Assembly (NCBI GenBank): GCA_024275975.1
Contig: JAJRYC010000038.1
Span: 13,955-77,954 of the forward strand
DNA: 64,000 nucleotides
Source of the DNA: Nitrospirota bacterium
Lineage (GTDB): Bacteria; Nitrospirota; Thermodesulfovibrionia; Thermodesulfovibrionales; UBA6898
Reading direction: 5' to 3'
The notes below the pieces were generated by a model. It was not told the origin of the DNA. It did not search any database and saw only the letters and a list, made by a program, of their open reading frames with translations. The position numbers and the translations under genes were made by a program. Shown here piece after piece: positions 1,246-61,535 of the stretch. The stretch's first letter is position 1, and each line of letters starts with the position of its first letter.

Positions 1246-1300
1246 CTCTCATCTCCTGTCGTCCCGACCGCGTCAGGTCCGGAACACCGGTAAAACTCTG

Positions 1301-2281: not shown

Positions 2282-2904
2282 TCAATTTTCCTTCCAATTC
2301 TTGTCCTGGCGATATCCGAAATCGAAACCTGCTTTTTGTTATCACCCGTTCTTACCGCAACTGTAATCCTTACTTCTTCGGGAAAGCTCTTCGTTAAGGA
2401 ACTGTCCCATGTCCTGACCCATTTTCCGTCATATTTTGCCTCGACCGTAAACGAATCCATATCTTCTATTAACTCCATGCCTGCTGCAACTCCGCTCGGG
2501 GCATAGGCTGAGGAAACCTTCTTTTTGAGCGACAGAGTTCCCCCTTCTTCCCGGACTTCATAGCTGATCCTTGCGAGACCGGGCATTAAAGGGGAATACG
2601 CGGTGAATGTTATTCCGGATGCCTGCCTGCCGTAAAAATCCCTGTCATCAATCTTGAAGATGGTGTACTTCAGGCTGCCGGAAAAATATGACGCCTCTAT
2701 CTCCCTCTTTAATATATCCAGAACTCCACGCGCTTCCTGGAGCTGTAAAAGGGAATTGCCAACAGTGCTTACAGCCTTCTGAGACATAAAAAATGTGCTG
2801 TAAAGCGCCATAAGAATAATAGACGTTATTGCTATGGCGACCAGAACCTCTATTAGTGTAAAGCCGCCCCTGAAGATACTTTTTTTATTGTTATTCATGA
2901 TCAA
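2269..2904 (-). CDS. gspJ: T2SS minor pseudopilin GspJ
   Basis: Prepilin N-terminus MIMNNNKKSIFRGGFTLIEVLVAIAITSIILMALY. Size (211 aa) and operon position fit GspJ. Confidence 0.7.
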   Translation of the reverse strand: MIMNNNKKSIFRGGFTLIEVLVAIAITSIILMALYSTFFMSQKAVSTVGNSLLQLQEARGVLDILKREIEASYFSGSLKYTIFKIDDRDFYGRQASGITFTAYSPLMPGLARISYEVREEGGTLSLKKKVSSAYAPSGVAAGMELIEDMDSFTVEAKYDGKWVRTWDSSLTKSFPEEVRITVAVRTGDNKKQVSISDIARTRIGRKIEWKQ

Positions 2905-2911
2905 TCCATCA

Positions 2912-3220
2912 TTATTCCCTGTTTTCTATGATCAGCTCGGACAGTTCCACCTCATCCTTTCCGCTCCTGACGACCACGCCTATCTCTATCATTCCCGGGA
3001 AAGAGGATTCCAGGACTTTTGTCTCATACTGAAAGCCTGACCAGGGATCCCTGAAATAGCCGCTGCTGTCCACAGGCGATTTCTCCATCTCGTACATCTT
3101 CTCTTTCGCGAGGGTTGTGGCGATAGTAACAACACCATGTCTGTCGGCAATGCCGAGCTGGTAATTCAGTGTATAAATAAGTGTTACAAGAAGCCCTCCA
3201 ATAATGGCAAGGCTTATCAT
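2912..3220 (-). CDS. gspI: T2SS minor pseudopilin GspI-like; leader peptide lies out of frame upstream (ATG at 3267)
   Basis: The ORF begins inside the hydrophobic helix (MISLAIIGGLLVTLIY). In its own frame it is preceded by TAG-GGFTLLEV. A separate frame starting at 3267 encodes MKHAFPGR. See findings. Confidence 0.6.
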   Translation of the reverse strand: MISLAIIGGLLVTLIYTLNYQLGIADRHGVVTIATTLAKEKMYEMEKSPVDSSGYFRDPWSGFQYETKVLESSFPGMIEIGVVVRSGKDEVELSELIIENRE

Positions 3221-3465
3221 AACCTCAAGAAGCGTGAAGCCGCCCTACCCGGAAAGGCATGTTTCATGAGGCCCGGTGCAATTACTGTTACTTTTTAGTC
3301 CTCTTATCTTCATGTCCTGCATGTATTTATATGAAAGATATTAAACCGGCAATAATACAGTTTGTCATGCCGGAAATGGTTTGGCATTCGGAACCTTGGT
3401 AATAATGGAATCCTGTCATCATTACAAGGTTTTTTTTGTTGTTCCGCCCGCGAATTACACAACAT

Positions 3466-3930
3466 TCAAGACAGATCCTCTAAAACCTTTACCCTGCCGC
3501 TCAAAGGGTTAAAGACGACCGTCATGGCGGCCCCCTCATCCTTTAAAAAAAAACTGAACGCCTCCGAAGCGCCAAGAGGTCCGAAAAAGATTATCAGTTC
3601 GCCTTCCGATACCATGCCCTTTGACTGTAATTCAACTGCATAAAGGCTTTCAAATCTCCGGGTCTTTTCTCCTTCGGGGCCATTGGAGACTATCAATTTT
3701 TCCTTGAAGTCCACCCCAAGCGAAAACGTCTCCTTGGTGGATATCGCGCTGTCATTCAGGTATCTCAATACGGATGCCAGCCTCCTGGCGTCGGATTTTA
3801 TCTTCTTCTCCCGGACAACGGAGAAAGACGGGATCACCAGCGCGAGCATCATGGATATAAGAAAGATTACTACTATTATCTCTAGCAGGCTGAAGCCGGC
3901 TGCTTCTGAATTCCGCTTGGTCCGCGTCAA
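3466..3930 (-). CDS. gspH: T2SS minor pseudopilin GspH-like
   Basis: Contains AAGFSLLEIIVVIFLISMMLALVIPSF. The track ORF runs to 4011 but overlaps gspG by 68 nt. A TTG at 3930, just after the gspG stop, gives the short leader (M)TRTKRNSEAAGFSLLEI, which is the more likely start. Confidence 0.6.
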   Translation of the reverse strand: MTRTKRNSEAAGFSLLEIIVVIFLISMMLALVIPSFSVVREKKIKSDARRLASVLRYLNDSAISTKETFSLGVDFKEKLIVSNGPEGEKTRRFESLYAVELQSKGMVSEGELIIFFGPLGASEAFSFFLKDEGAAMTVVFNPLSGRVKVLEDLS

Positions 3931-3943
3931 TCGGCCAGCGATA

Positions 3944-4423
3944 TCACTCCATGTTCCAGTTTGTAATATCCGCATCCTTTCCCTCGCCGCCTTCGCTTCC
4001 GTCAGCCCCAAAGCTTATGATGTCAAAATCTCCCTGCAGTCCGGGGGAGATATATAAGTAGGGATTGCTCCAGGGATCCAGGGGGATTTTCCTGCGTTCC
4101 AGGTAGCCGCCCTCTCTGAACTTTCCCGGTATCTTACCAGTTGTAGGCTCTTCTATTAGGGCATTCAGCCCCTGCTGGGTATCAGGATAGAAGCCGTTGT
4201 CTATCTTGAAGAGTTTGAGCGCCGTCTCAAGGTTTCTTATCTGAATCTTTGCGTCGGCAACACGCGCGTCATCCGTACGACCAATGATCTTCGGCGCCAC
4301 AATCGCGACTAACAGACTGAGGATAAACACAACGACGATAATCTCGATCAGGGTAAACCCTTCCCGCTGGTTACGGCTTTTCGTAGCTTCTATATTCCAC
4401 TGCTTACGTTCTGTATTCTTCAT
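3944..4423 (-). CDS. gspG: T2SS major pseudopilin GspG
   Basis: REGFTLIEIIVVVFILSLLVAIVAPKIIGRTDDARVADAKIQIRNLETALKLFKIDNGFYP is a classic GspG N-terminal and conserved core. Confidence 0.9.
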   Translation of the reverse strand: MKNTERKQWNIEATKSRNQREGFTLIEIIVVVFILSLLVAIVAPKIIGRTDDARVADAKIQIRNLETALKLFKIDNGFYPDTQQGLNALIEEPTTGKIPGKFREGGYLERRKIPLDPWSNPYLYISPGLQGDFDIISFGADGSEGGEGKDADITNWNME

Positions 4424-4450
4424 TATTTAATAACCTCCAACATAACTATT

Positions 4451-5626
4451 TTACTTAATCAACATATTCAACTGGAATATGGGCAGCAGGACCGCCATGA
4501 CAATAAAGGCCACGGCAAGCGCCATGCATAATATCATCGCAACTTCAAAGACAGCAACAGCGTCATTTACTTTTCTGTTGAATTCATTCTCATATGAACT
4601 TGCCGCCCTGTTCAGTGTCTCGGCCAGCCTTCCGCTCCTTTCACCCGTTGCGATCAGCTGGATCAATACAGGAGAGAAGTGTTCGAGAGACGCGGAAAGG
4701 CTATGGCCCTCGGCAACTTTTTCCTCAGCGTTCAGGACCGAGTTTTCCAACACCTTATTCCCCATTGATTTCGCGGAAAGCTTCAGCGCGCTCAGCATCG
4801 GGAGACCGCCGGCGATCAGAAATTCCAGGGTCCTAGCGAACCTGGCGTAGTAGAGACTCTGGATTACATTGCCGGGCGCCCTGAGAATCATCCTGTCGAT
4901 AAAGACTCTCCTCCTCTCCAGAAATCTTTTAACCGGAAGAAACAGCGCCGCGACACTACCTATAAGCGCCCACCAGTAATTGGTGAAGACATTACTTATG
5001 AATATCAGGACGATTGTTACAAAAGGCAGTGTGCTTTCGGTGTCTTCAAATATCTTAACAATTTTAGGTATCACAAAAGTAAAGAGGAATGAGAGCACCA
5101 CAAGGCTGACACCCATCATTATTATGGGATATATCATGGCTGATCTGACCTTTGACTTAACTGCATTCCGGCTCTCCAGAAAATCAGCGAGTCTGAGGAG
5201 CACTTTGTCGAGCGTGCCGCTCTGTTCGCCCGCCTGTATCATGTTAATGTAAAATTCAGGGAAGTAATCACCAAATTCCTCCATCGCCCTGTATAGACCA
5301 GCCCCACCAGAGACCTTTTCCTTTATATCGATCAGCATATCTCTGTAAATCCCTTTGTATTCATTCGAAAGCGACTGAAGCGCCTCGATTAAAGGTACTC
5401 CGGACGCAAAGAGTATCGAAAGCTGCCTCGTCATGCCCGGGAGGAATGTCTCGTCGATCCTCTGGAAGAAATGTTTTTTATGTCTGACACGCGGCGCGGT
5501 TATATCCCGGGGAAAGACGCCTTCGGCCCTGATTTTGGCGACAGCGTCATTGAGCCCAGATGCCTCGATAATGCCCGACACATCCGCGCCTTCCGATGTA
5601 TATCCGTTATATTTGAAAACAGGCAT
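4451..5626 (-). CDS. gspF: T2SS inner-membrane platform protein GspF
   Basis: 391 aa with the duplicated GspF-type cytoplasmic domain plus TM segments. It lies between gspE and gspG. Confidence 0.9.
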   Translation of the reverse strand: MPVFKYNGYTSEGADVSGIIEASGLNDAVAKIRAEGVFPRDITAPRVRHKKHFFQRIDETFLPGMTRQLSILFASGVPLIEALQSLSNEYKGIYRDMLIDIKEKVSGGAGLYRAMEEFGDYFPEFYINMIQAGEQSGTLDKVLLRLADFLESRNAVKSKVRSAMIYPIIMMGVSLVVLSFLFTFVIPKIVKIFEDTESTLPFVTIVLIFISNVFTNYWWALIGSVAALFLPVKRFLERRRVFIDRMILRAPGNVIQSLYYARFARTLEFLIAGGLPMLSALKLSAKSMGNKVLENSVLNAEEKVAEGHSLSASLEHFSPVLIQLIATGERSGRLAETLNRAASSYENEFNRKVNDAVAVFEVAMILCMALAVAFIVMAVLLPIFQLNMLIK

Positions 5627-5719
5627 AATTCACACTGTAGATTAATGGCGATGTAATCTTTCTTTGCCGGAATATGATTCCCGCGGGCCTCGACTGATTT
5701 TTCCGGACTGAAGGCATAT

Positions 5720-7249
5720 TCATACTTCAACTATGTCTTTCTGCGTCACCCTCATAACCTCTTCAAGGGTTGTATCACCCTGTAGCACCTTATTCAGTCC
5801 GTCCAGATAAAGGGTCTTCCTGCCTTTTGAAACAGCATAATCTTTTACAGACTGCGAAGCCGTCCTGCCTGTAATCATCTGTCTCACTTCATTGTCCACG
5901 TATAAGAGTTCAAAAATTCCAGATCTTCCGAGATAACCGGTGCCTTTGCATTTATCGCATCCGGCCCCCCTGTGCAGTGTGAGCTGCGCGGACTGAATTT
6001 CAAAACCGGAAAAATATTCAGCCTCTTCCTCCGTCGGCACGTATTCCTCCCTGCAGTAAGGACATATATTTCTCACCAGCCTCTGCGCCAGGACGGCAAC
6101 GAGCGACGAAGCAACCAGGAACGGTTCCACTCCCATGTCGATAAGCCTTGTAATAGCGGATGCCGCGTCGTTTGTATGGAGTGTGGACAGGACAAGATGG
6201 CCTGTAAGGGATGCCTGAATTGCTATCTCGGCAGTCTCAAAGTCCCTTATTTCGCCGACCATTATTACGTCTGGGTCCTGTCTTAATATCGACCTGAGCC
6301 CCGAGGCGAAAGTGAGCCCTATCTTCGGATTTACATGTATCTGGCCGATACCCTTAAGCTGATACTCCACTGGGTCTTCAACGGTTATTATATTCTTCTC
6401 TTCCGTATGAATCCGGTTTAACGAGGCATACAGCGTCGTGGTCTTTCCGCTTCCGGTCGGACCCGTGACAAGTATGATGCCGTTGGTCCTGCGTAAGAAA
6501 TTCTCGAAGTCCCTCCCGTCATCACCGGTAAGTCCGAGTTCATTCAGGCTGATAAGCCCCTGTCTCCTGTCGAGCAGTCTAAGCACCGCCCTCTCCCCGA
6601 AGGAAGTCGGAACTATCGAGACCCTTATATCTATATCTTTTCCGCCGATGAGTATCCTTATGCGTCCATCCTGTGGAAGCCTCTTTTCGGCAATATCGAG
6701 GCTGGCCATAATCTTTATCCTGCTTATCAGGGCGTCCTGGATAATCTTGGGCGGGGTCAATATCCTGTGGAGCATTCCGTCCATCCTCATTCTCACGTCA
6801 AGTTCTTTTTCGTACGGTTCAATATGAATATCGCTGGCCTTCTCCTTGACAGCCTGCTGTAGAAGGGCATTGAGCAGACGTATGATAGGCGCTTCTTCCG
6901 TAAGCTCCATAAGGTCTCTGGGCTTTTCGAACTCTGTGGCGACCGCCGAAAAATCTTCGCCTGATATGCCCTCCATAACCTCTTCGGCAGAGCCTGTCTG
7001 ACCGTAAACCCTGTTAATCGCGTCAATAATAATTCCGGGCCGGGCCTTTAGAGGATATGGGTTGAGGGCATATCTCCGGGCTATTTCACGAAGCGCAAGG
7101 TATCCTCTATCATCCGCAACCGCAGCCACAAGCGAGCCGCCGGATCTTTTTATCGGCATAATCATATTATTTTTCGCGAAAGAAAGTGGGATTTCCTTGA
7201 TAAGGGAAATCTCGATCTCATCGTCATTTAGGGCATCAATCGTTTTCAT
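5720..7249 (-). CDS. gspE: T2SS ATPase GspE
   Basis: Walker A GPTGSGKTT, Asp/His boxes, and a C-terminal tetracysteine (CPYC...CDKC). 509 aa. Confidence 0.95.
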   Translation of the reverse strand: MKTIDALNDDEIEISLIKEIPLSFAKNNMIMPIKRSGGSLVAAVADDRGYLALREIARRYALNPYPLKARPGIIIDAINRVYGQTGSAEEVMEGISGEDFSAVATEFEKPRDLMELTEEAPIIRLLNALLQQAVKEKASDIHIEPYEKELDVRMRMDGMLHRILTPPKIIQDALISRIKIMASLDIAEKRLPQDGRIRILIGGKDIDIRVSIVPTSFGERAVLRLLDRRQGLISLNELGLTGDDGRDFENFLRRTNGIILVTGPTGSGKTTTLYASLNRIHTEEKNIITVEDPVEYQLKGIGQIHVNPKIGLTFASGLRSILRQDPDVIMVGEIRDFETAEIAIQASLTGHLVLSTLHTNDAASAITRLIDMGVEPFLVASSLVAVLAQRLVRNICPYCREEYVPTEEEAEYFSGFEIQSAQLTLHRGAGCDKCKGTGYLGRSGIFELLYVDNEVRQMITGRTASQSVKDYAVSKGRKTLYLDGLNKVLQGDTTLEEVMRVTQKDIVEV

Positions 7250-7306
7250 GCTATCCTATCAATATTTGTTGAAACAGGCATGCAATATACCGATGTCATG
7301 TCTCCA

Positions 7307-9013
7307 TCATCTCTTTTTTGACCGCATCGCCTTCATTTTATAGTTAGGCTCTGCGTATTCCACTTCAGGTATGAGCGAAAATTCCCGGATAGCGTCTTCC
7401 ACAGTCCGCCCTTCCCCAAGCTTTACAAGATAAACCCTGACATGTTTCATGACCTTAATTACAGACCCGCCTTCCTGGGCGATTATCTCCTCTGCCGCGT
7501 CATTTGTGACGCCTTCCATGAATTTGACCAGAATCTCTCCCTCTACATACTGATTCTCCACTTTAGCGAACTCCTTCTGTTTGCTCTTTGTAATCGAACC
7601 GAGACCCTCCGCGTCCTTGATGACATGTGGGGTGATAAAGATCAAAAGGTTCGTCTTTTTCTTCGAGACGCTTTTGGTCTTAAACAGCCATCCCAGAACA
7701 GGGATATCACCGAGAATAGGCACCTTGGCAAGGTTTTCCTCGTCCCTCTCTTCCATCAGGCCGCCGATTACTACTGTCTGGTTGTCCTTCACAACAACTG
7801 ATGTTCGAGTCGAGCGCTTTGTGGTCGATGGACCGACACTTATAAGGATATCATCGCTGGCGTCCTGCTTTACCGACGATATCTCCTGGTATATATCGAG
7901 CTTTACATAATCTCCCTTCGTAATCTGGGGCGTTATCCTGAGTGTTATTCCGACATCCTTTCTCTCTATCGAGCTTAGGACGGTATTCGCGGTCGTGATG
8001 TCCCGCTCTCTCTTTGAGATGAAGGGCACATTTTCACCGACGATAATCTCCGCCTCCTGGTTGTCCGATGTTAGCAGTTGAGGCGTCGAAAGAACGTTTA
8101 CCGCGCCCCGAAACTCATTCATGCTAAAGAGAGCGGCGAACCCAGGGACGGAAAGAGTTGATTCCACAAGAGACCCATTTGCGTCTATTGTCGTCATGGG
8201 GATATCGAAGTAATTACCCATGCCTCCTCCCGTAAGACCGGTCAACCCGTAGATCAGTGACTGCAGAGCAGACCCATCCATCGTCCCGAATCCTCCTATT
8301 CCGATCGGCTCTCCATTATGAGTCCCCATCACCCTCCATTTTGTCCCGAGTTCCCTTAATTTATCAATTGACGCCTCCACAATCATCGCCTCGACAAATA
8401 CCTGCCTTCTCCTCTTGTCAAGTTGTTTTATGACGCGCACCAGATTTTGATAATCCGAGGGTGACGCAACGATCACCAGGGAATTCGTCGCCTCATCGGC
8501 AGTAATATTTATACCACCGGCTGACTCGAACGGGGTCATCGCCACCCCCCCCTTTTTTGTCTTTTTCCGGGGCGACGCGCCTTTTATTATTCGTGACAGC
8601 ACTTCCGCCAGTTCAGTGGCGTCGGCATTTTCAAGTGTATAGACATTTATCATCCCCTGCGCATCCGGAGAAGGCACGTCAATCGCCGCAATGAGGGATT
8701 TCATCGATTCTCTCCTGCCTTTATCACCAAAGAGTATAACAGCGTTCAGTCTCTGGTCGGCCACTGCCTTTGTCTTTTTCATCCTGGACTGCTTCCCGGG
8801 CGCACCCCTTGCCCTGCTCTGTCCGATGCCTTCATTAATCATCTTCGCGACTGCGTCAGCGCTCGAAAACCTGAGGAAAACAATATCCGGCTCCTCCCTC
8901 AATGAAGGCTGGTCTATTGCATCAATAATCGAGAGTACTTTTTCAATATTAAGCCCTGAATCTATTACAAGAAGCATATTGCCCGGCCCAAAGTCAGAGA
9001 CATAGCCGTTCAT
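7307..9013 (-). CDS. gspD: Secretin GspD, N1-to-C-terminal portion (same gene and frame as 9050-9511), with an extra C-terminal domain
   Basis: Secretin-core blocks VLSTPQLLTSDNQEAEIIVGENVPF, VVIGGLMEE, VPILGDIPVLGWLFK, NLLIFITPHVI. The start at 9013 is in frame with the upstream ORF across two TAG codons. Confidence 0.9.
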   Translation of the reverse strand: MNGYVSDFGPGNMLLVIDSGLNIEKVLSIIDAIDQPSLREEPDIVFLRFSSADAVAKMINEGIGQSRARGAPGKQSRMKKTKAVADQRLNAVILFGDKGRRESMKSLIAAIDVPSPDAQGMINVYTLENADATELAEVLSRIIKGASPRKKTKKGGVAMTPFESAGGINITADEATNSLVIVASPSDYQNLVRVIKQLDKRRRQVFVEAMIVEASIDKLRELGTKWRVMGTHNGEPIGIGGFGTMDGSALQSLIYGLTGLTGGGMGNYFDIPMTTIDANGSLVESTLSVPGFAALFSMNEFRGAVNVLSTPQLLTSDNQEAEIIVGENVPFISKRERDITTANTVLSSIERKDVGITLRITPQITKGDYVKLDIYQEISSVKQDASDDILISVGPSTTKRSTRTSVVVKDNQTVVIGGLMEERDEENLAKVPILGDIPVLGWLFKTKSVSKKKTNLLIFITPHVIKDAEGLGSITKSKQKEFAKVENQYVEGEILVKFMEGVTNDAAEEIIAQEGGSVIKVMKHVRVYLVKLGEGRTVEDAIREFSLIPEVEYAEPNYKMKAMRSKKR

Positions 9014-9049
9014 CTATACAATCGGTTTTATCAGCCTGAGGGCATCGTC

Positions 9050-9511
9050 CTAGGATATATTCTTCAGAGTCATAAGCCTGGCGATATAACTTTCGTTTAC
9101 AGGCTGTCCATCATAAGAAATTTTAATGCCCTTCTGCTTTGCCTCGGCAACAGGAATAATCTTGTAAGCATCCACACCCGATGGCACAACAGTAAAACCT
9201 TTAAGCTCAAGGATGGACGTAAAAAGGTTATACGCGTCATCAACGTTCAGTTTGGAGGGGGCTATTATTGTTATATTTCCCTTCACCCTGTTATCGAAAA
9301 TAAAGTTCTTGCCGGTAATCTCACTTATAAATTTAGTTACTGTAGACAGTTCGACATCCACGAAATTAAAGGTGACCTCTTCGTCTTTTACGGTCTCCGC
9401 AAAGGCTGGTGTGGCGGCAAGGGAGGAAAGAAGAAGGATATATGATAAAACAAGAAACAATAATACAGCAGAAAGATGGAGACTACAGGATAAAACAATA
9501 TTTTTTTTCAC
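9050..9511 (-). CDS. gspD: Secretin GspD, signal peptide + N0 domain portion (ends at an in-frame TAG)
   Basis: Signal peptide followed by the N0 block VTFNFVDVELSTVTKFISEITGKNFIFDNRVKGNITIIAP...AYNLFTSILELKGFTVV. The stop at 9052-9050 is TAG, and the frame continues into 7307-9013. Confidence 0.85.
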   Translation of the reverse strand: MKKNIVLSCSLHLSAVLLFLVLSYILLLSSLAATPAFAETVKDEEVTFNFVDVELSTVTKFISEITGKNFIFDNRVKGNITIIAPSKLNVDDAYNLFTSILELKGFTVVPSGVDAYKIIPVAEAKQKGIKISYDGQPVNESYIARLMTLKNIS

Positions 9512-9586
9512 TTTGTATTGCCCTCGCTTTTCAATAATTTATATACAAGCTGCCGCCGGTTGGTCCAGGGACCGGCATAGGATATT

Positions 9587-10462
9587 TTATTTTATCTGGT
9601 ACGTCATTGTCATCTTCGCGCCATTTCTGATAATGTTCATCCTGACCCGCTCCATACCCCTCAGGGCGGTGAAAGCCTGGAGCGCGTATTCGGGGTTGGA
9701 GATATCAAACTCATTAATCTTCAAAAGAACATCACCGTTCCTGAGGCCGAGACTGTCGTATATCCCCCCTTTTTTGACTTCACGCATAGTATATCCCTGC
9801 TGCCTGCCGTCAACAATATTCGGCAGAAGGCGGGCATCGGTCATCAGGTCCCTCGGATTTTCTATGGCCTGCTGGATCCTTCTCTGATCTATGGAGTAAG
9901 TGGTGGCGTTAATCTTTCTTGTAAATCCAGAGTAGGAACCACGGGACTTGTTTCTCCGGGTCTCCCTTGCAGAGACTATCTCTCTCAGAGGGAGCTCCGT
10001 TATGTTTTCACCTTTTTCTATAACAACCCTGTCTTTTTCGACTTTCCTGAGGATGCCGAGGTTAAAGACGGAATCACCAACCCTGAAAATCTCCTGCTTG
10101 CCCATCTTGGCCATAAAGATAGCATAACTGTCTCTTTCCCGCCCCGCAACAGTGCCGATAAGTATTATGTCACTATCAGACAGCGCGGGCGGTTGATTCG
10201 ATAAAGACCTTAGGTTACCCCCGGGGAATCCAAAGGGATTGTTCTCCAGTATTGATGCGTAAATCTGGAGATTATGATTCGGAAGACTTTCACTCTTTAT
10301 GTCATTAATAACGGCCTTTTTTTCAGGACTGAAAGAAAACGAGACGACATCTCTGATTAAAAAGAGTGTTGCGATGATAAGCAATGCTCCTATTAACGGG
10401 TTAATCAGGGCTACAAGCTTCCGGTTGTTAACAAGAAGATTGTTTAAATTCTGTATTTTCAT
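9587..10462 (-). CDS. gspC: T2SS protein GspC (N-terminal TM, C-terminal PDZ)
   Basis: TM helix LVALINPLIGALLIIATLFLI. PDZ-like C-terminus GIYDSLGLRNGDVLLKINEFDISNPEYALQAF. First gene of the operon. Confidence 0.7.
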   Translation of the reverse strand: MKIQNLNNLLVNNRKLVALINPLIGALLIIATLFLIRDVVSFSFSPEKKAVINDIKSESLPNHNLQIYASILENNPFGFPGGNLRSLSNQPPALSDSDIILIGTVAGRERDSYAIFMAKMGKQEIFRVGDSVFNLGILRKVEKDRVVIEKGENITELPLREIVSARETRRNKSRGSYSGFTRKINATTYSIDQRRIQQAIENPRDLMTDARLLPNIVDGRQQGYTMREVKKGGIYDSLGLRNGDVLLKINEFDISNPEYALQAFTALRGMERVRMNIIRNGAKMTMTYQIK

Positions 10463-11430: not shown

Positions 11431-13119
11431 ATGAATTTTTTGAAGAGCAATAGAAGAAGCCGCATAACATTAATTTTACTATCGTTGTTATTGGTGGTGA
11501 TACCATTATATCTGTATAGCTGCGGCGGTAGTGTCGGCGGCGGATATGACACGTGCGTGGATCCGAAAATCAACGTCCTGGTCGACGCTGACACGCTGAA
11601 TGGCTGGATAACAAACGGATATGGCAGCGATGACAGCAACTGCAACAGGATAGTCGTACTGCATGTCGGCGATGATGCAAGCTATAGCGCAGGGCATGTC
11701 CCCGGAGCCTATCAGCTTACTGATTCTGATTATGCAGCTACCAGGTCTGACGGAGTTAGTGAAACTAATGGAATGGTCGCCACAAAGGCCCAGATGGATG
11801 ATCTCATCCAGAGGACAGGCATAGACGCAAGAACCGTTGTTGTTCTTACCGGACGGTATGCCAGTAGTGCTATGAATATTTACAAACTGACAAGGTCATA
11901 TTTTAACTTCCGTTACTGGGGATTCCCGAGGAACAGGATAAGAGTGCTTGACGGTTTTGTTGACACAACTTGGGCTAATGCAGGTTATGCCGTAGATACC
12001 ACTCCTACCCCGGCCTCGGAGGCCTCCGACTACAGTGTCTGCAGCCTGACACCGGACCCCGACAGATTCAGGGCGCCATTGGAAGAGATGAGGAATATTG
12101 CCATGGATGACGATGTCGCGACTGTTGTTATTGATACGAGGCGCGATGATGAATACAACGCTACTATTAATACTACAGGTGGACCTACATTTTCTGGCTT
12201 TGTTGCATTTGAAGGACATGCAAGGACCGCAGTCCACCAGGAATGGATAAACCTGTTAGATACAGAAATGAGACTCCTTCCGAAGAATGACCTGACATCA
12301 ATATTCACCGGCATAAATGTAGACGAGACCACAACCGCATATCCCTACTGCCGCACAAGTTTCAGGGCGGCTGTCACATTCCTGGCGCTTGACGGCGTCC
12401 TCAACTACCCGGTAAAAATCTATGACGGAGGATGGCTTGAGTGGGGCCAGATGACTTCCACGGCATTGCTGGGCGGTCTAGCAGATACCTCTCCATGGAG
12501 GACTGATTTCATTCCTCTGGGAGACGGAGAGATAATCGACAATAATTCAGACGGAGTGCTGGCCAATGGCTATGAAGATACTTTCGAGGGTGCTTCGTCT
12601 AATACTGGCGGTGCAGACTGTACTGATCTTTATGGTACTGATTTCAGATATGATGGCACTGCGGATGGTGGTTTGGCAACATGGACGCCACAGACATTAT
12701 CAGCCGGTACTTATAATGTGTCCGTATGGCATGTAGCTAAATCCAGTTACTCCACAAACGCGGCATATACCGTAAATCACAATGGTGCTGCCGATAATGT
12801 AACCGTGGATTTAACAGCAAACGGCTGTCAATGGTACAGCATCGGTACATATGACTTTGTGGCTGATGGTGTAACAGTAGAAAATATTACATTGAGTGAT
12901 TCCGGCGCCAGCACCGGTTTTGTAGTTGCCGATGCCGTCAAATTCACTCCCGTAATGCAGTTGACCGAGTCAATCACACATAATACCAATGTTGAGCCAC
13001 TCACCGGTGCTAATTCTTTTGCCTTTCACGCTGACGGCGTGAATACTGAAGATGCCGCGATATGCACATCTGGCGACACAGGTGGCGGCGGCGGTGGTGG
13101 TGCAGCACCAGGATATTAA
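11431..13119 (+). CDS. Exported lipoprotein with rhodanese-like (sulfurtransferase) domains and a C-terminal beta-rich domain
   Basis: Lipobox LYLYSCGG. Rhodanese-type blocks include VVLHVGDDASYSAGHVPGA and a loop Cys, YPYCRTSFRAAVTFLAL. The C-terminal segment (GTYNVSVWHVAKSSYSTNAAYTVNHNG...VADAVKF) resembles golvesin-C-like / amidase-associated domains from memory. Gly-rich tail. Confidence 0.6.
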   Translation: MNFLKSNRRSRITLILLSLLLVVIPLYLYSCGGSVGGGYDTCVDPKINVLVDADTLNGWITNGYGSDDSNCNRIVVLHVGDDASYSAGHVPGAYQLTDSDYAATRSDGVSETNGMVATKAQMDDLIQRTGIDARTVVVLTGRYASSAMNIYKLTRSYFNFRYWGFPRNRIRVLDGFVDTTWANAGYAVDTTPTPASEASDYSVCSLTPDPDRFRAPLEEMRNIAMDDDVATVVIDTRRDDEYNATINTTGGPTFSGFVAFEGHARTAVHQEWINLLDTEMRLLPKNDLTSIFTGINVDETTTAYPYCRTSFRAAVTFLALDGVLNYPVKIYDGGWLEWGQMTSTALLGGLADTSPWRTDFIPLGDGEIIDNNSDGVLANGYEDTFEGASSNTGGADCTDLYGTDFRYDGTADGGLATWTPQTLSAGTYNVSVWHVAKSSYSTNAAYTVNHNGAADNVTVDLTANGCQWYSIGTYDFVADGVTVENITLSDSGASTGFVVADAVKFTPVMQLTESITHNTNVEPLTGANSFAFHADGVNTEDAAICTSGDTGGGGGGGAAPGY

Positions 13120-13131
13120 AAGAATTTAACG

Positions 13132-13434
13132 GTGAGACACGGACTGTTCATCATATTTTTATCTGTCCCATTGATGCTGCTCCTCACCGCAACGGGACCT
13201 CAGGCGAAAGAGATTATAGCCATGGGTCCGGACAGCGGCGACAAGCGGATACAATGGGATGCTAACAAGGATTATGAACAATCCGGTGAAGATTCCGATG
13301 ATAATAGCACGGGGGAGACCCGGCCTTCAAAAGAAGACTGCGGCAGCGGGACTCGGGACGAGTCTCCCCAGGGCTGTTCAGGCGTTCCGGAAAATACAAA
13401 ACCTGAATATGATCTGTCGGATTGCTGCTGTTAG
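13132..13434 (+). CDS. Small secreted acidic protein ending in -DCCC
   Basis: GTG start and a signal-peptide-like N-terminus (RHGLFIIFLSVPLMLLLTATGPQA). Acidic, low-complexity body with C-terminal CCC. No clear SD. Ends at TAG. Confidence 0.35.
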   Translation: MRHGLFIIFLSVPLMLLLTATGPQAKEIIAMGPDSGDKRIQWDANKDYEQSGEDSDDNSTGETRPSKEDCGSGTRDESPQGCSGVPENTKPEYDLSDCCC

Positions 13435-13501: not shown

Positions 13502-14152
13502 ATGAGATTCGGAATGAAAAAATGGGGCCTGACGGCTTTAATATTTGCGATGACGTTCGGATTTGGCATACAATCAGTCCAAGCCGGTCCTATGATAAAG
13601 ATAAGTGACCAGTCATGGCTCCTGATTAACTATAGTAGTCAACTTTACGGTGTATGGCGTGACACAGGTTCAGGACCTGACGCCACTGACGACTCCAGCG
13701 ACATCTTCTTCAGGAGAAACAGGCTGACCTTTTTCGGAAAGGCGACAAAGACGCTGAAGTTCAACCTTCAGATCGAACACAAAGGCACCAGGATGATCCA
13801 AAACCTCGGAGTTGATTCTTCACCGGGAGGAGGCCTTGATATCCTTGATGCCTTTTTAATGGCGAAGTATTCCAATGCCTTCAGGCTGAGGCTCGGACTT
13901 ACAAAAGACCCTCTGACCAGGGAAAATAACGAAGGATGTTTCGATCCGCTGACTCTCGACCGGTCGCTGTTCATATACACGCCGTTTCAGGTGTCCCGTG
14001 ACACAGGCTTGGTGGTATGGGGAAATCTGCTCAAAAACAGATTACAGTACAGGGCGAGTATAATGGAAGGCAGGGAGAGCGCCGACACACCCAAGAGCAG
14101 TCTCCGTTATACGGGAAGGGTCCATGTTACGCTGCTTAACCCTGAGTCTTAG
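13502..14152 (+). CDS. Outer-membrane beta-barrel porin (porin O/P-like), N-terminal part ending at an in-frame TAG
   Basis: GAGGAGG RBS, signal peptide MRFGMKKWGLTALIFAMTFGFGIQSVQA, and alternating beta-strand pattern. The frame continues into 14189-14692. Confidence 0.6.
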   Translation: MRFGMKKWGLTALIFAMTFGFGIQSVQAGPMIKISDQSWLLINYSSQLYGVWRDTGSGPDATDDSSDIFFRRNRLTFFGKATKTLKFNLQIEHKGTRMIQNLGVDSSPGGGLDILDAFLMAKYSNAFRLRLGLTKDPLTRENNEGCFDPLTLDRSLFIYTPFQVSRDTGLVVWGNLLKNRLQYRASIMEGRESADTPKSSLRYTGRVHVTLLNPES

Positions 14153-14188
14153 ATCATCTACAGGGGAACTTATCTCGGAAAGAAAAAA

Positions 14189-14692
14189 GTGCTTACACTG
14201 GGCGGTGGCTATCAGTTTGAGCCTGACGTAGCCTATGCGAGCCTTTCAACTCAAGATTTACCCGTGGACAACACAACATGGACAGTTGACGCGTTCTTCG
14301 AGTACCCCACCCCGGCCGGAACATTCACTGTCTCGGGCGCTTATCTTGATGTTGATTTCGATGACGCTTATAAAGGTCCTGATCCTGACCCGGCTGTTTT
14401 TAATGTCCTTGGTGAGAGGAACGGATGGTACGCAAAGGCAGGTTATCTCTTTCCTTCAAAGATCGGTATAGGAAAACTTCAGCTATTCGGTCGTTATGAA
14501 TACTGGAAATTCGCCGAACTTAATGGGATCGGCGACCAGACGATTAAATGGACTGGCCTCGGCATTAACTATCTCATCAACAACCAGAAGTTAAGACTGA
14601 CGGTTGAATACGCCAAGACCGATTATGAAACAGAAGACGCCACGAACAAGGATTTTGATACAGTGACAACGATGGTGCAGTTTATGTTCTAG
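14189..14692 (+). CDS. Outer-membrane beta-barrel porin, C-terminal part (same frame as 13502-14152)
   Basis: The frame is open from 14153. Beta-strand pattern, with a C-terminal beta-signal ending in Phe (TTMVQFMF). It has no signal peptide of its own. Confidence 0.6.
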   Translation: MLTLGGGYQFEPDVAYASLSTQDLPVDNTTWTVDAFFEYPTPAGTFTVSGAYLDVDFDDAYKGPDPDPAVFNVLGERNGWYAKAGYLFPSKIGIGKLQLFGRYEYWKFAELNGIGDQTIKWTGLGINYLINNQKLRLTVEYAKTDYETEDATNKDFDTVTTMVQFMF

Positions 14693-14723
14693 GCCCCAAA
14701 AGCCCGGAGCGATTTTATTCACA

Positions 14724-14760
14724 GGGAAAAGCAGCCTGCCTGCTTTTCCCTTTTTTTATT
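14724..14760 (+). terminator. Rho-independent terminator after the porin gene
   Basis: GGGAAAAGCAG-cctgc-CTGCTTTTCCC (11-bp stem) followed by TTTTTTTATTT. Confidence 0.7.
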
Positions 14761-14823
14761 TATGGCACTGCGGATAACAGCGGAATTCAGCAGCTGGCAT
14801 AAGCGAGTCCGCTGGTTAGGACT

Positions 14824-15014
14824 TTACTTTATTGGTTTTATTCCAATGTCTTTGCAAATCTTTCTTACAATATTATCGTTGATTTCTGAATGCCTTGGAA
14901 TTGATGAGCGTTTGTTTTGACCTGGATTCCACCACCATGAATGACGAGACCGCCCTCTCTGATAAATTCACATCCCTGCGACCGTAGATACTTCAGCAGG
15001 TCATTACGCTTCAT
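14824..15014 (-). pseudogene. hicA: hicA-like toxin, single-base frameshift
   Basis: Frame 1 reads MKRNDLLKYLRSQGCEFIREGG. A second frame reads SRHSWWWNPGQNKRSSIPRHSEINDNIVRKICKDIGIKPIK*. The span is 191 nt, which is not a multiple of 3. The break lies near 14946-14952. Confidence 0.7.
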
Positions 15015-15223
15015 ATCGCAATTTTTTCTTCTACGTATTCCGATCCCCCGGCAGCAATCGCATCTTGACGATTGAATTCCAAAGCCTCTTTCAGTGTAAC
15101 GCGCAGGCTTTCCATTAACTCTTCACGAGTATGTTCCTGGCAGTTCACACCAGGAATTTCCTCTATCCATCCTATCCACCAATCACCTTCCTGCTTTACT
15201 ATGGCAGTATATTCCGTGTTCAT
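15011..15223 (-). CDS. hicB: HicB-family antitoxin (UPF0150-like)
   Basis: 70 aa, MNTEYTAIVKQEGDWWIGWIEEIPGVNCQEHTREELMESLRVTLKEALEF. Its stop overlaps the hicA ATG (ATGA). Confidence 0.75.
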   Translation of the reverse strand: MNTEYTAIVKQEGDWWIGWIEEIPGVNCQEHTREELMESLRVTLKEALEFNRQDAIAAGGSEYVEEKIAI

Positions 15224-15663
15224 ACACTTACTCCTTTTAGATCGTTATATTTATTTTATGTTACCAAATAATATACCCATCCCGCTATCAATTTTATTTC
15301 CATAACAATTTCAATATGTTCTGGATACCCGAAGACCCCCGATCGGAGTCGAGGGCAGGCTTCGGGCATGACAAAAACAAAAAATGGCGATTTATAAACA
15401 GACTCTAATTAGCAATGAGTAATAGTTTTTGCCACTGCATGTATCCGCGGAATTATATCTGTGGTGAAGGAGAATGTACGCTCTTATAACTTTATAGTGG
15501 CAAAAAACCACTGTCTGCTGATATAACAGAAAAGGATAATTATCTCACCATCCCTCTATTTGCGGGAATCTCCAACTTGAAAAATTCAACCTTTTAAAGC
15601 AGTTCTATTGCTATACTTAATGTTTTACCTTCACTTATATCAGCGCATTTAATAATTTCTTTT

Positions 15664-16560
15664 TTAGTTCAGAGTTGCCCGCTCTCTCTTTATGGCATCC
15701 GCGACCCTCGCGACTTTCGCCATCTCTTTAACGTCATGGACACGGACGATGTCCGCGCCTTTTATTATCGAAATCGCCACTGCTGCCGCCGTGCCTTCGA
15801 TCATCTCGCCCGCAGGGGCGCCATCGAGTATGTTTCCGATGAAGGCCTTTCTTGAAGGACCTATGAGCACCGGCTTTTCGAGCATGGTGAATTCATTGAG
15901 GTTATTTATTATCTGAAGGTTATGATCAAACGTCTTTCCGAACCATATTCCGGGATCGATTATAATCATATCATCGGGGATACCGAATTTTTTCGCCAGC
16001 CGGATGCCGGCCCTGAAATAATCCATTATCTCCGGGATGAGGGCCTCGTATTCAGGATTATCCTGCATATTCCTTGGCACACCTTTCATATGCATCATCA
16101 CGACAGGGACCTTATATTCCGAGACGACCATCGGCATTCCGGGGTCGAATCTCATTCCGCTTATGTCATTGACTATCGAGGCACCCGCCTCAATCGCCTG
16201 TTTTGCGACCTCGGCCTTACAGGTATCTATAGAAACCGGTATATCAACTTTCCCTGAAAGCGCTTCGATTACCGGCACTACGCGATCCAGCTCTTCGTCA
16301 ACAGAGACCGGCTCGGAACCTGGCCTTGAGGACTCGCCTCCGATATCAATTATGTCAGCGCCGTCATCAACCATCCTGAGGGCACGATCTACCGCCATTG
16401 ATTTATCGAAATACAGCCCATTCTCAGAAAAGGAATCCGGCGTTACGTTCAGGATTCCCATTATACAGGTCTTTTCAGAAAAGTCTAATGAATAGTTTTT
16501 CCAGGCAAGTCTCAAGTAGCGGGCCTCAAGCCTCGGCGACCCCCTGTAGATCAGCCTCAT
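15664..16560 (-). CDS. folP: Dihydropteroate synthase
   Basis: Pterin-binding blocks [36 protein letters not shown]. Located downstream of ftsH, as is common. Confidence 0.9.
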
Positions 16561-18334
16561 GAATAAGCTGGTCTACCTCCTTCCCGTCCATCGTCTCCTT
16601 TTCAAGGAGTCTCTTCGCAAAGGAATCAAGCAGCGTCTGTTTATCCATAAGAAGGGCCTTCGCGGCCTTATAGGCGTCTAATACGATACGTTTGACCTCT
16701 TCATCAATCTCCGCGGCGGTCTTTTCACTATAGTCCTTGTGCTGTGATATCTCCCGACCGAGGAATATCTGCTCTTCTTTTTTACCAAAAGTGACAGGAC
16801 CAAGCTTATCGCTCATCCCCCATTCCGTTACCATCTTTCTAGCTACGTCGGTGGCGCGTTCAAGGTCGTTGCCGGCGCCTGTCGTCATATGCTTCAGTGC
16901 TATCTCTTCGGCGGCCCTGCCGCCCATGAGAACCTGCAGAGTCTTTATCAGGTATTCCCTTGAATAGGTATATCTTTCATCTATCGGAAGCTGCTGTGTT
17001 ATCCCAAGCGCCCTGCCTCTCGGTATTATACTCACCTTGTGGATAGGGTCCGTGCCGGGTGTAAGCCTTGCGACCAGTGAATGTCCAGCCTCGTGGTACG
17101 CGGTATTCCTATTCTCTTCATCACTTATGATCATGCTCTTTCGCTCCACACCCATCAGAACCTTGTCTTTCGCGGCCTCGAAATCAGAACTCTCCACCTT
17201 GGTCTTTGCGCTTCTGGCCGCGATAAGCGCGGCTTCGTTTATCAGGTTAGCAAGGTCCGCACCGGTAAATCCGGGCGTTCCCCTGGCAATTTTCTCCATG
17301 TCCATATTCTCGTCTATGGGTATGTTTCTTGTATGTACTTTCAGTATCGCGAGTCGCCCCTTGACATCAGGCTGAGGCACCACCACCTGCCTGTCGAACC
17401 TCCCCGGCCTCAACAGGGCGGGGTCGAGCACATCAGGCCTGTTAGTCGCGGCAATGATTATTCTGCCCTCATTGCCTTCAAAGCCGTCCATTTCAACCAA
17501 TAGCTGGTTAAGTGTCTGTTCGCGCTCGTCATGACCTCCTCCGAGTCCGGCCCCTCTGTGTCTTCCGACAGCATCAATCTCGTCGATAAAAATTATACAT
17601 GGCGCGTTCTTCCTGGCCTGTTCAAACAGGTCTCTGACCCTCGATGCGCCGACACCCACAAACATCTCGACAAAATCCGATCCGCTTATGCTGAAAAAAG
17701 GCACACCTGCCTCGCCCGCGATCGCCTTGGCAAGCAGTGTCTTGCCCGTACCGGGCGCGCCGACGATAAGAACTCCCTTTGGTATCCTGCCGCCCAGTTT
17801 CTGGAATTTCTGAGGGTCCTTGAGAAAGTCTATTATCTCCTCCAGCTCCGCCTTCGCCTCTTCTATGCCCGCGACGTCCGCAAAGGTTATTTTTACGGAC
17901 TTTTCAGGAACAAGCCTCGCCCTGGATTTTCCGAAAGACATCGCTTTGTTTCCCCCGCTCTGCATCTGGCGCATGAAAAATATCCAGATTACGGCGATGA
18001 AGATTATAGGTCCCCATGTAAAAAAGAGGTTAATGTACCACGGGTTCTGGTCGGGTGGCTTCACGGTAATTTTTACGTTCTCCGCACGCATTTTCTCGAC
18101 GAGCTCGGGATATTCAGGGGAATACGACCTGAACTTTGTCCCGTCCTTCAAACGGCCTGTAATGGCATTCTCCTTTATCGTAACCTCATCGACATCCCCG
18201 GCATCAAGCATCGTCATAAACTCGGAAAAGATCAGCTCTTCCTGGATCTTTTTCGGAGCGTTTAAAAGATTAATCAGCAGGAGTATCAGTAAAGCAATCA
18301 GCACCCAGATAAATAGATTTTTATATGCAGTCAA
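16526..18334 (-). CDS. ftsH: ATP-dependent zinc metalloprotease FtsH
   Basis: Two N-terminal TMs, Walker [14 protein letters not shown], an SRH region, and the HEAGH zinc motif. Confidence 0.97.
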
Positions 18335-18541
18335 TATTTTCCTCCATAAATTTTATATATTTTAACACACGGAAAACATTATTTTCAGCTATTGGAGAAC
18401 AGTATTGAAATATCCCGGCTGTCATTTCGAATAAAGCGGGAAATCTTTAAAATGACACAACCATGGAATATTGATATACGGATTCTCTCCAGCGATCGGA
18501 AATGTCCGCCGCCTGATCCCGTCCGCTGCCTGAAATACGGT

Positions 18542-19279
18542 TCAGCGCGCCGGGGCACTAAATATATTTTCCAGCATTTCCTTCTGTTTAGAGATCAGTT
18601 CCGAGATGCCTTTTCCAGCTAGAGCGATAAGATCATTCAGTTTTTCCGTTGAAAAAGGCTTGCTTTCGGCCGTGCCCTGGATTTCGACCACATCTCCACT
18701 ACCCGTCATGACTATATTCATATCCACCTCGGCGGAAGAATCCTCCTCATAACAGAGGTCAAGCAACACCTCGTTGTTAACTATCCCGACACTTATAGCG
18801 GCAAGGTAGTCCCTGATCGGATTTTTCTCTATAATACCGTTTTTCAGGGCGTATCCCATTGCATCGGCGAGACAGATGAACGCCCCGGTTATCGCCGCCG
18901 TCCTCGTACCCCCATCGGCCTGTATAACGTCGCAGTCCACCCAGAATGTCCTCTGCCCGGTCAGGTTAAGATCGACGACCGACCTTAATGACCGCCCTAT
19001 GATTCTCTGTATTTCATGTGTCCTGCCGCCTACACGGCCGATGGACGATTCTCTTGAAGTTCTGCTCTGTGTGGCCCTGGGAATCATGGAATATTCAGCT
19101 GTTATCCATCCCCTGTTCTGGTCCCGCAGAAAAGGAGGCACTCTATCCTCTATCGAAGCAGTGCAGATGACCCTTGTCCCGCCCAACTCTATGAGTACGG
19201 AGCCCTCCGCGGTGCTGATAAAATCCCTTGTAATTTTGATGTTTCTCATCTCATCGTTTTTTCTGCCGTCGGTCCGCAT
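18542..19279 (-). CDS. rph: Ribonuclease PH
   Basis: [20 protein letters not shown]..., with [19 protein letters not shown]. Confidence 0.95.
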
Positions 19280-19452
19280 AAATATTATACCTCCATCTCC
19301 ATCTCTATTTTTTTTATAAAATCTATCTTCCTGCCCAAAAAATTCTCGCCGACACTAACAAATCTTTCAGTGGAATCCGTCACGTAAAATTTATGGACAG
19401 CATCATCCGGGCCTGTCCTCCTCAGGGACAGTTCATTCAGAACATTTTTTAC

Positions 19453-20124
19453 CTATCCGGCGGTTTCGACCGCAGAGTCGATGAGGGTGACTGTTTCACT
19501 CATGACCTTTGTTATAACATTCTTCAGGAGAGGATAATGAGTGCATCCGAGCACCAGGGTGTCCACGCACTTGTCCCTGATATTATTCAGGTATGTTTCG
19601 GCTATCATTTCGGCTATTCTGCCTTCAGACCATCCTTCTTCAACAAGGGGGACAAAGAGCGGACAGGCCAGGCTGAATACCTCGACATCACCGTCAACCT
19701 CTTTTATCGCCCTGGTATATGAAGAGCTTTTTATGGTGGCTTCAGTGCCTATCACACCGATTTTTTTATTCTTCGAGCATGAAACAGCAGCCCTCGCGCC
19801 GGGCTTTATGACACCCAACACCGGTACGGGCACGGAACGCCTGATAGCGTCCAGACTTACTGACGATGCTGTGTTGCATGCTATAACGAGCAATTTAATA
19901 TCTTCTGAAATTAGGAACCTGGCGTTCTCGAAAGAGTACCGGGTTACTGTTTCCGGAGACCTTATGCCGTAAGGGACCCTTGCCGTATCCCCGAGATAGA
20001 CGGTATTTTCAAAAGGCAGTTCCCTGAATATCTCCTTTAATACAGTCAGACCTCCAATGCCTGAATCGAATATGCCTATCGGCTTTTCTTTTTTATTCAT
20101 CGGAAAGTCTGCTGCTGTCCTCAT
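19453..20124 (-). CDS. murI: Glutamate racemase MurI (ORF stops at in-frame TAG; conserved C-terminus continues in frame to 19285)
   Basis: [13 protein letters not shown], with catalytic-Cys blocks ACNTAS and GCTHYPLL. After TAG 19455-19453, 55 more in-frame codons encode a MurI-like C-terminus. Confidence 0.9.
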
Positions 20125-21692: not shown

Positions 21693-22013
21693 ATGGGTAA
21701 TCGGGAATCCAAAACATTATTCAGGATAAAACAATCGCTGGAATACTGGTTGGCAATGGAAAGTACTATTAAATCAGCCGGATACGTAAAAAATCTTCGC
21801 CGGCCGTGACCGTATATTCCTGATCGCACCGACAGTTCCAGGCACCTCAAAATAAAATCCTGCTAAAATGATAAACCATTCGGAATAAAAAGGTATAATT
21901 ACAGAGGAAATATTTATCCAGTGACCCTCCGGATGGATGAGTGGGCGGGCCTTATCACACTGCCAGATCCGATAATAAATTTTATATTTTCGAAAGGAGT
22001 TAATAAACAGGGA

Positions 22014-22721
22014 ATGGAAGATCTCAAAACATCAGAAACATGGCGTGTCTTCAAAATTCAGTCGGAACTTGTTGATGGGTTTGAAACCCTGCATGGCCTC
22101 GGCCCCGCGGTGACCATCTTCGGCAGTTCAAAGCTTATGTCCGGCAACAAATACTATGAGGACGCGGTTACAGTGGCAAAGATGCTTGCAGATGACGGCT
22201 TTGCCATAATTACTGGCGGAGGCCCCGGCATCATGGAAGGCGCAAACAAAGGCGCCAAAAAAGGCAGATCCCAATCTGTCGGTCTTAATATAGATATACC
22301 GGCTGAACAGGCACCGAACATGTACCAGGACATCTCTCTCTCTTTCAGGTATTTTTTTATCAGAAAACTCATGTTCATTAAATATGCCACCGCATATGTA
22401 ATCTTTCCGGGAGGCTTCGGCACAATGGACGAGCTGTTCGATGCCTTAACTCTTTCACAGACCAAAAGAATAGACTCATTCCCCATAATACTATATGGAT
22501 CTGATTACTGGAAGGGACTGATTGACTGGCTGAAAAAAACACTGGTGGCCCAGGGTACAATAAAGAGAGAAGACCTGGCGCTGTTCTCCATGGTCGACAG
22601 CCCGAAAGACGTCCGCTTTCTTGTCAAAGAGCATTTCAGGGTCTTTGGCGGTGTCAAACCCAAACCCAAACCCAAACCCAAACCCAAATACAAATACAAA
22701 AGAATAAAGAAAACGGAATAA
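22014..22721 (+). CDS. LOG-family (TIGR00730-type) nucleotide-binding protein with a KP-repeat tail
   Basis: GGGPGIMEGANKGA and PGGFGTMDELFD motifs. Start placed at MEDLKTSETWRVF; the track ORF opens at GTG 21921. C-terminus KPKPKPKPKPKYKYKRIKKTE. Confidence 0.8.
   Translation: MEDLKTSETWRVFKIQSELVDGFETLHGLGPAVTIFGSSKLMSGNKYYEDAVTVAKMLADDGFAIITGGGPGIMEGANKGAKKGRSQSVGLNIDIPAEQAPNMYQDISLSFRYFFIRKLMFIKYATAYVIFPGGFGTMDELFDALTLSQTKRIDSFPIILYGSDYWKGLIDWLKKTLVAQGTIKREDLALFSMVDSPKDVRFLVKEHFRVFGGVKPKPKPKPKPKYKYKRIKKTE
22656..22697 (+). repeat. Hexanucleotide microsatellite (AAACCC)5(AAATAC)2 inside the LOG gene 3' end
   Basis: Direct reading of the sequence. It encodes the (KP)5(KY)2 tail. Confidence 0.95.
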
Positions 22722-55394: not shown

Positions 55395-55409
55395 AAGAGA
55401 GGTGAAACT

Positions 55410-55601: not shown

Positions 55602-55607
55602 AAATTT

Positions 55608-61533: not shown

Positions 61534-61535
61534 TT

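Follow-up and report, generated by a model that had tools for sequence, protein, structure and literature searches.

Does the in-frame stop codon that splits an outer-membrane porin gene of a Nitrospirota bacterium belong to the biology of the organism, or only to the record of its sequence? The gene, extI, lies in a stretch of 64,000 nucleotides of contig JAJRYC010000038.1 (NCBI GenBank assembly GCA_024275975.1, positions 13,955 to 77,954 of the forward strand), which was analysed as a whole and which we refer to as the window; all positions given here count from its first letter. A sequence-only reading of the window had pointed out that a functional porin would require readthrough of an internal TAG and termination at a second TAG that ends the same gene, and had proposed either context-dependent or partial suppression or a very recent pseudogene. 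Here we compare the locus with near-identical contigs from other public samples. By this comparison the internal TAG is a one-base difference of a single record and belongs to a strongly asymmetric layer of G:C>T:A changes that runs through the window. We lean, with only slightly more than even confidence, towards an error in the assembly consensus that would have arisen from oxidatively damaged template, rather than a recoding signal.

A porin gene with a stop codon seen in one record

Positions 13502-14692 of the forward strand form one reading frame of 397 codons, opening with ATG at 13502 and closing with TAG at 14690-14692. The frame contains a single internal TAG, at 14150-14152, with ...VHVTLLNPES before it and IIYRGTYLGKKK... 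after it, and both the sequence and its translation bear out the earlier statement that the two parts are in one frame and joined by this codon. With the internal TAG taken as serine, the resulting product of 396 codons matches the NCBIfam model NF040900, named 'selenite/tellurite reduction operon porin ExtI', with 473.4 bits against a cutoff of 150 (E 5e-142). The match covers model positions 14-403 of 403 and spans the TAG in one stretch; Pfam Porin_O_P is also matched by the same read-through product. Being full length and above the curated cutoff, the NF040900 match places the protein in the ExtI porin family. About 1,000 ExtI homologues are single proteins of about 400 residues that align across the TAG site, with a best identity of 61 %, and the two halves can thus be treated as one porin gene. 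The candidate explanations that two open reading frames (ORFs) are paired here by chance, or that the orthologues are naturally two genes, are ruled out by these homologues and by the uninterrupted model match. The sequence-only reading had named two-gene orthologues as an outcome that would overturn its view; the alignment shows single porins of about 400 residues instead.

The predicted product has the parts of an exported outer-membrane protein. Judged by inspection, its N-terminus resembles a Sec signal peptide (MRFGMKKWGLTALIFAMTFGFGIQSVQA, followed by GP), and its C-terminus reads ...TTMVQFMF, with ...VQFMF standing where the family consensus has ...MLQFLF. An AlphaFold2 model (pLDDT 71.7, pTM 0.72) contains about 17 beta-strands and puts residue 217, the one encoded by the TAG, in the loop between strands 197-210 and 230-243. 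ExtI is therefore predicted to be an outer-membrane beta-barrel with a signal peptide and an aromatic C-terminal beta-signal. According to the model, a fragment of 216 residues would amount to about half of this barrel and would lack the C-terminal ...VQFMF. The natural stop of the gene is TAG as well, as had been noticed, and an intrinsic terminator, assigned to 14723-14760, lies downstream of it on the same strand, its hairpin (12-bp stem, 5-nt loop) and T-run occupying 14723-14751. Because this strong hairpin and T-run come next, we take 14690-14692 to be the true end of extI. Reading through it would append 76 residues and bury the terminal Phe.

The relatives used for comparison (L001-L005 and L023-L033) are contigs of other public samples, 97-99.7 % identical to the window, that were retrieved by exact-protein look-up of neighbouring genes. 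One of these, L005, is 99.5 % identical over 13847-19890 and has TCG at 14150-14152 (...GAGTCTTCGATC...), so that its C-terminal 281 ExtI residues are uninterrupted; the 40 nt around the TAG are otherwise identical between L005 and the window. A full-length ExtI orthologue of 397 residues found in other samples (P0123, 95 % identity) carries Ser at the TAG position (...LLNPESSIIYRG...). Among 25 aligned homologues the column holds Ser in most and Gly or Ala in the others, inside a conserved ...LLDPES-S-LVYxGTYLG... block. The difference comes down to base 14151, which is A in the window and C in the relatives and which turns TCG (Ser217) into TAG. Truncated ExtI products of the window type are recorded from one NCBI contig only. 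When genome contigs were scanned with ExtI, none from this species came up, and the best hits were Nitrospirota metagenome-assembled genomes at 56-60 % identity. Judged from these alignments, the extI TAG is a TCG>TAG (C>A) change of one base, private to the window record and without conservation. The earlier suspicion of a very recent change is thus upheld, the base being private to the record and the codon TCG in a contig of 99.5 % identity. The sequence-only reading had also said that reads with a sense codon at 14150-14152 would speak against it; such a codon is present in close relatives (TCG in L005), and this evidence does not come from the record's own reads.

Two observations concern the comparison material itself. 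Most of the differences between P0123 and the window fall in loop residues ~101-113, and the short-read contigs of the relatives break at or in extI (L001 stops at 13548, while L005 and L003 begin at 13847 and 14696), which together suggests that the porin varies at strain level and fragments assemblies. At locus positions 1557-3366 of L005 (JGI 3300001391), ftsH is divided into four ORFs through single-base indels. These are sequencing errors of that record, and the comparison contigs are imperfect too.

The private status of the codon bears directly on the idea that the TAG is an evolved recoding site, used either for pyrrolysine (Pyl) or for a programmed, context-dependent readthrough that would yield two ExtI isoforms. 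What supports this idea is an in-frame TAG in an otherwise intact and well-conserved gene, and Pyl-using sulfate reducers are known: Pyl-encoding in-frame TAGs have been reported in marine sulfate-reducing bacteria (Kivenson et al. 2021, PMC8318568), and here too the TAG occurs in a bacterium of a sulfidic marine setting. However, Pyl TAGs are conserved in methylamine methyltransferase families and come with pyl genes, whereas the extI TAG is private, falls in a porin loop and replaces a Ser. With TCG in near-identical relatives and Ser, Gly or Ala in the family, nothing about the site is conserved, and the AlphaFold2 model places it in a variable loop. No tRNA gene, no Rfam match and no pyl genes were found in the window, and the remaining in-frame TAGs, described below, are at unconserved positions of unrelated genes. 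Programmed readthrough fares no better, since neither the stop nor a stimulatory context is conserved when relatives have a sense codon, and no structured RNA element is detected by Rfam. Pyrrolysine-type use of TAG in extI is thus not supported by the sequence comparison. The earlier proposal of context-dependent or partial suppression, understood as an evolved property of extI, likewise finds no support, given TCG in L005, Ser in P0123 and Ser, Gly or Ala in the family, and we consider evolved recoding of either kind extremely improbable.

A private layer of G:C>T:A changes

Treating TAG as a sense codon across the whole window exposed three further interruptions, in two genes. The secretin gene gspD (7307-9511, reverse strand) carries private in-frame TAGs at 9050-9052 and 9014-9016, both of which are TCG (Ser) in L001 and L002. 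GspD is intact in these two relatives, with 734 residues, and apart from the TAGs their whole gene shows just two differences from that of the window, both synonymous; the read-through product of the window matches TIGR02517 over positions 1-600 of 600 in one stretch. The glutamate racemase gene murI (19285-20124, reverse strand), as a rule an essential gene, is interrupted by a private in-frame TAG at 19453-19455, where L003, L004 and L005 have GAG (Glu). MurI is intact in L003 and L004, with 279 residues, and the window protein, once read through, aligns to positions 2-266 of 267 of the glutamate racemase model, again in one stretch. All four private nonsense codons are single-base G:C>T:A transversions, from TCG in extI and twice in gspD and from GAG in murI. 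The sequence-only reading had missed the three sister TAGs, along with the G:C>T:A layer that accounts for them.

The tally of nonsense codons in the window is four TAG, no TAA and no TGA, a small sample, and no gene split by TAA or TGA was found there. Wherever a pair of neighbouring ORFs in one frame is covered by relatives, these have two separate genes. TAG serves as natural stop at a normal frequency (about 6 of the 54 larger ORFs, ~11 %), and the relatives have no in-frame TAGs or interrupted genes in the ~51 kb compared, which agrees with the earlier argument against a simple genome-wide reassignment of TAG. A wholesale TCG>TAG swap or reassignment is ruled out, given that 206 in-frame TCG codons remain and that one TAG derives from GAG. 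A motif of the methylation or restriction type is likewise ruled out, the sites CCTAGG, TATAGAT, CTTAGAT and GATAGG sharing only TAG with a purine after it.

The layer itself was defined by aligning all close relatives, which cover 51 kb, and by keeping the sites at which every covering relative disagrees with the window; isolated private differences were then set apart from dense tracts. The dense tracts are mostly synonymous and symmetric in direction, and by these features they appear to behave like recombined segments. Isolated private differences number 56, and 27 of them are G:C>T:A in the direction from relative to window. Judged by an outgroup of ~95 % identity (L028, L029), 3 of the 27 are derived in the relatives, which leaves 24. 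Against these 24 stand only 2 changes in the reverse direction, whereas transitions are balanced at 12:12 (Fisher p=0.0013). The density of the layer is about 0.5 per kb.

The effects of the changes on coding sequence are 12 missense, 4 nonsense and 7 synonymous, with 1 change intergenic. The ratio of missense plus nonsense to synonymous is 16:7 in the layer, compared to 9:16 in all other private classes (p=0.025). On the codon usage of the window, neutral G:C>T:A change is expected to be 70 % missense, 9.4 % nonsense and 21 % synonymous, and at least four nonsense changes among 18 coding hits would arise with P=0.08. The layer is thus close to neutral and not filtered by selection, and the remaining private differences resemble ordinary polymorphism that has passed through selection.

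The changes also share a sequence context. The mutated C is preceded by a 5' pyrimidine in 22 of 24 cases, over a background of 57 % (p=3e-4), the leading contexts being TCT (seven), TCG, CCT and CCC (three each). Seen from the opposite strand, the 5'-pyrimidine context of C corresponds to a mutated guanine with a purine next to it, and guanine followed by a 3' purine is the preferred setting for guanine oxidation.

Several members of the layer can be followed to individual residues. A second private G>T in extI, at 14501, changes GAC (Asp) to TAC (Tyr); Asp is present in L005 and P0123, and the family column at this codon holds E, D, N, K or V, never Y, in the homologue alignment. At 15945 a private C>A on the forward strand falls in folP (15664-16560, reverse strand) and turns a Gly codon of the DPGxGF motif, GGG, into TGG (Trp), at a site where all aligned PDB dihydropteroate synthases have Gly. 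The private missense change at 17111 in ftsH (16526-18334, reverse strand) replaces a Lys that is shared by E. coli with Asn, immediately ahead of the HEAGH zinc motif. Another hit, in dihydrolipoyl dehydrogenase, falls on a variable site, as expected of random placement. By outgroup or family conservation, ten changes can be called window-derived, namely the four TAGs and those at 14501, 15945, 17111, 39826, 40769 and 41925. Changes within 200 bp of each other are not above expectation in a hand count, and the strand type along the window looks random.

Template damage, mutator or suppressor

Mis-copying of an oxidised guanine, 8-oxoguanine (8-oxoG), which pairs with A, yields G:C>T:A only, at a G with a purine after it, and this is the spectrum of the layer. 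In the account that we marginally favour, guanines would have been oxidised on the template and the resulting 8-oxoG mis-copied against A to give G:C>T:A, and this damage would have become fixed in the assembly consensus, for example through few or amplified template molecules. The extI of the organism would then encode an ordinary ExtI porin of 396 residues and roughly 17 strands with Ser217; the signal peptide would direct its export and the C-terminal ...VQFMF beta-signal its insertion, and the porin would work with the upstream rhodanese-like protein ExtH. Template damage appears the most likely origin because a free-living cell could hardly bear the load, with about 5 % of its genes carrying nonsense codons and essential ones included: in the window, 3 of ~57 genes are so affected, murI among them, and folP is hit by missense. 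The comparison shows that the change is private, that the layer has this spectrum, asymmetry and neutrality and that the family members are intact; an artefactual rather than an in vivo origin is what we infer.

Several points weigh against template damage. All four nonsense codons are TAG (P=0.0095; ~0.07 for all being the same stop of any kind), when neutral G:C>T:A change is expected to produce TAG at 31 %, TAA at ~49 % and TGA at ~19 %. Three of the four come from TCG, and two of these, in gspD, are 36 nt apart, which remains odd. Most of the 24 changes are polarised only through agreement among the relatives. The changes moreover sit in the consensus of a long contig, whereas the published 8-oxoG artefact of shearing is seen at low allele fractions, with a preference for CCG>CAG (Costello et al. 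2013, PMC3616734). The contexts in the window are mostly TCT, TCG and CCT, and the CCG context of the shearing artefact is present in 1 of the 24 changes only. We have therefore rejected acoustic shearing with its CCG>CAG context as the explanation. Since the changes are in the consensus and only one is in CCG, something out of the ordinary, such as a very small number of templates or their amplification, must be assumed.

What the layer has in common with 8-oxoG changes at large, whether of artefact or of mutator, is the exclusive C>A/G>T class, the lack of filtering by selection and the biased context. Mutators deficient in MutY or MutM share the 8-oxoG-type G:C>T:A spectrum, and the changes could accordingly be real mutations of a hypermutator clone deficient in the repair of oxidised guanine (GO repair, mutY/mutM type). 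The interrupted extI, gspD and murI would in that case be true pseudogenes of very recent origin, and all that is made of ExtI would be a non-functional fragment of 216 residues. An almost pure G:C>T:A spectrum with an asymmetry of 24 to 2 suits such a clone. The context, rich in TCT and CCT, is nearer to in-vivo 8-oxoG or MutY-deficiency spectra than to the CCG>CAG artefact, and the presence of the changes in the consensus of an 81-kb contig argues for decent coverage. However, the load described above, with Trp at an invariant Gly of FolP, is implausible in a viable free-living cell, missense and nonsense changes stand to synonymous ones in nearly the neutral proportion, and the alleles are on one contig only. 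The window contains neither mutY nor mutM, and MutS there (about 37874-40450, forward strand) is full length with one private Phe>Leu (39826). A MazG-family gene is located near MutS, at 36995-37762 on the reverse strand; neither of the two accounts for the G:C>T:A spectrum. On balance we regard real mutations in a mutator clone as unlikely, though deserving of serious attention.

The bias towards TAG would be explained differently if the mutations were real and tolerated through an amber suppressor. Ser-inserting amber suppression of the supD type is classical E. coli genetics; amber mutations there arise, as here, by the single steps TCG>TAG and GAG>TAG, and a supD-type tRNA would silence those of the TCG>TAG kind. 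The most economical candidate would be a tRNA-Ser in which the anticodon CGA had mutated to CUA, a single G:C>T:A step in its own right. With such a tRNA, TCG>TAG changes would leave the protein unaltered and GAG>TAG would mean Glu>Ser; full-length ExtI would be made at reduced yield, and natural TAG stops, that of extI included, would be partly read through. Such a natural suppressor mutant, in which a G:C>T:A mutator had made tRNA-Ser(CUA), could accumulate TAGs, mostly former TCG, while TAG still ends other genes. All four nonsense codons being TAG, with none TAA or TGA (the same P=0.0095 under neutrality), speaks for this, as do the three that replace TCG (Ser), though TCG makes up only 26 % of the G:C>T:A routes to TAG, and the normally essential murI among the interrupted genes. 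A suppressor would nonetheless not rescue missense changes at invariant residues, such as Gly>Trp in FolP, and chance is still needed, about one TAG being expected even with tolerance and four being seen. TAG is not depleted as a natural stop, ending ~11 % of the larger ORFs and extI among them, where readthrough would add the 76 residues that bury the terminal Phe. Unlike a supD background, the 64-kb window has no suppressor tRNA, nor any tRNA gene, and TAG is still a normal stop there; the relatives, for their part, are free of in-frame TAGs in the ~51 kb compared. An amber suppressor at work in this organism seems to us improbable, both as the means by which the changes are tolerated and in the form of a natural mutant that is accumulating TAGs.

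The ExtH-ExtI pair and its surroundings

The upstream operon partner of extI is the rhodanese-like gene extH (11431-13119, forward strand), which matches NCBIfam NF040901 SeO3_TeO2_ExtH with 214.6 bits against a cutoff of 200. Geobacter sulfurreducens reduces less selenite and tellurite when it is deficient in extI (Jahan et al. 2018, PMC5877670). The window protein resembles the ExtI of that extHIJKL... cluster in its family, in its position directly downstream of the ExtH gene and in its signal peptide, predicted beta-barrel and aromatic C-terminus. Unlike the Geobacter cluster, the window has no ExtJ gene and no ExtK/ExtL cytochrome genes downstream of extI; the terminator is followed instead by small ORFs on the opposite strand and then by folP. 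The window ExtI is also at most 61 % identical to database proteins outside its own species, and it carries the private nonsense codon.

Between extH and extI, an ORF of 100 residues (13132-13434, forward strand) has a signal-peptide-like N-terminus, a C-terminal CCC and no family match; it may encode a small protein that acts with ExtH and ExtI in the periplasm, or it may be no gene at all. Between extI and folP, two small overlapping ORFs of 49 and 70 residues (14865-15223, reverse strand) have no NCBIfam match, and the longer is also called in the relatives. From their sequence, the pair resembles a toxin-antitoxin module of the HicA/HicB type.

Three segments, at 3939-5144, 16733-17750 and 54539-55841, show dense, mostly synonymous differences (up to several percent) amid 99.6-99.9 % identity, which by sequence looks like homologous recombination among strains. 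The genes gspD and gspE, which adjoin the first of these tracts, are almost identical to those of the relatives. Both belong to a complete gsp cluster for type II secretion (gspL, K, J ... G, F, E, D, C) at 178-10462 on the reverse strand. A 12-bp insertion relative to L003 and L004, at 22679-22690, lies in a short repeat of the AAACCC type near the 3' end of a LOG-family gene (21921-22721). Further along, at 59466-63491 on the reverse strand, there is a four-gene cluster of the NiFe-hydrogenase type, with a large subunit, a small subunit, an FAD/NAD subunit and a 4Fe-4S subunit.

What the result offers is chiefly methodological: an in-frame stop in a contig assembled from a metagenome can look like recoding. 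Setting the window against nearly identical contigs of public samples, together with a test of mutation spectrum and selection, exposes the extI TAG as a member of a wider unselected layer. This layer would falsely break about 5 % of the genes of the record, and gene calls, pseudogene counts and inference of the genetic code from it need caution. Were a Ser-inserting natural amber suppressor to prove true after all, improbable as we hold it, the window would have caught, in an uncultivated Nitrospirota-like bacterium, stop-codon reassignment at its first step, a rarely seen 'ambiguous intermediate' of stop-codon capture. As it stands, the locus is biologically an ordinary ExtH-ExtI porin pair, and the TAG in extI most probably does not belong to the biology of the organism.

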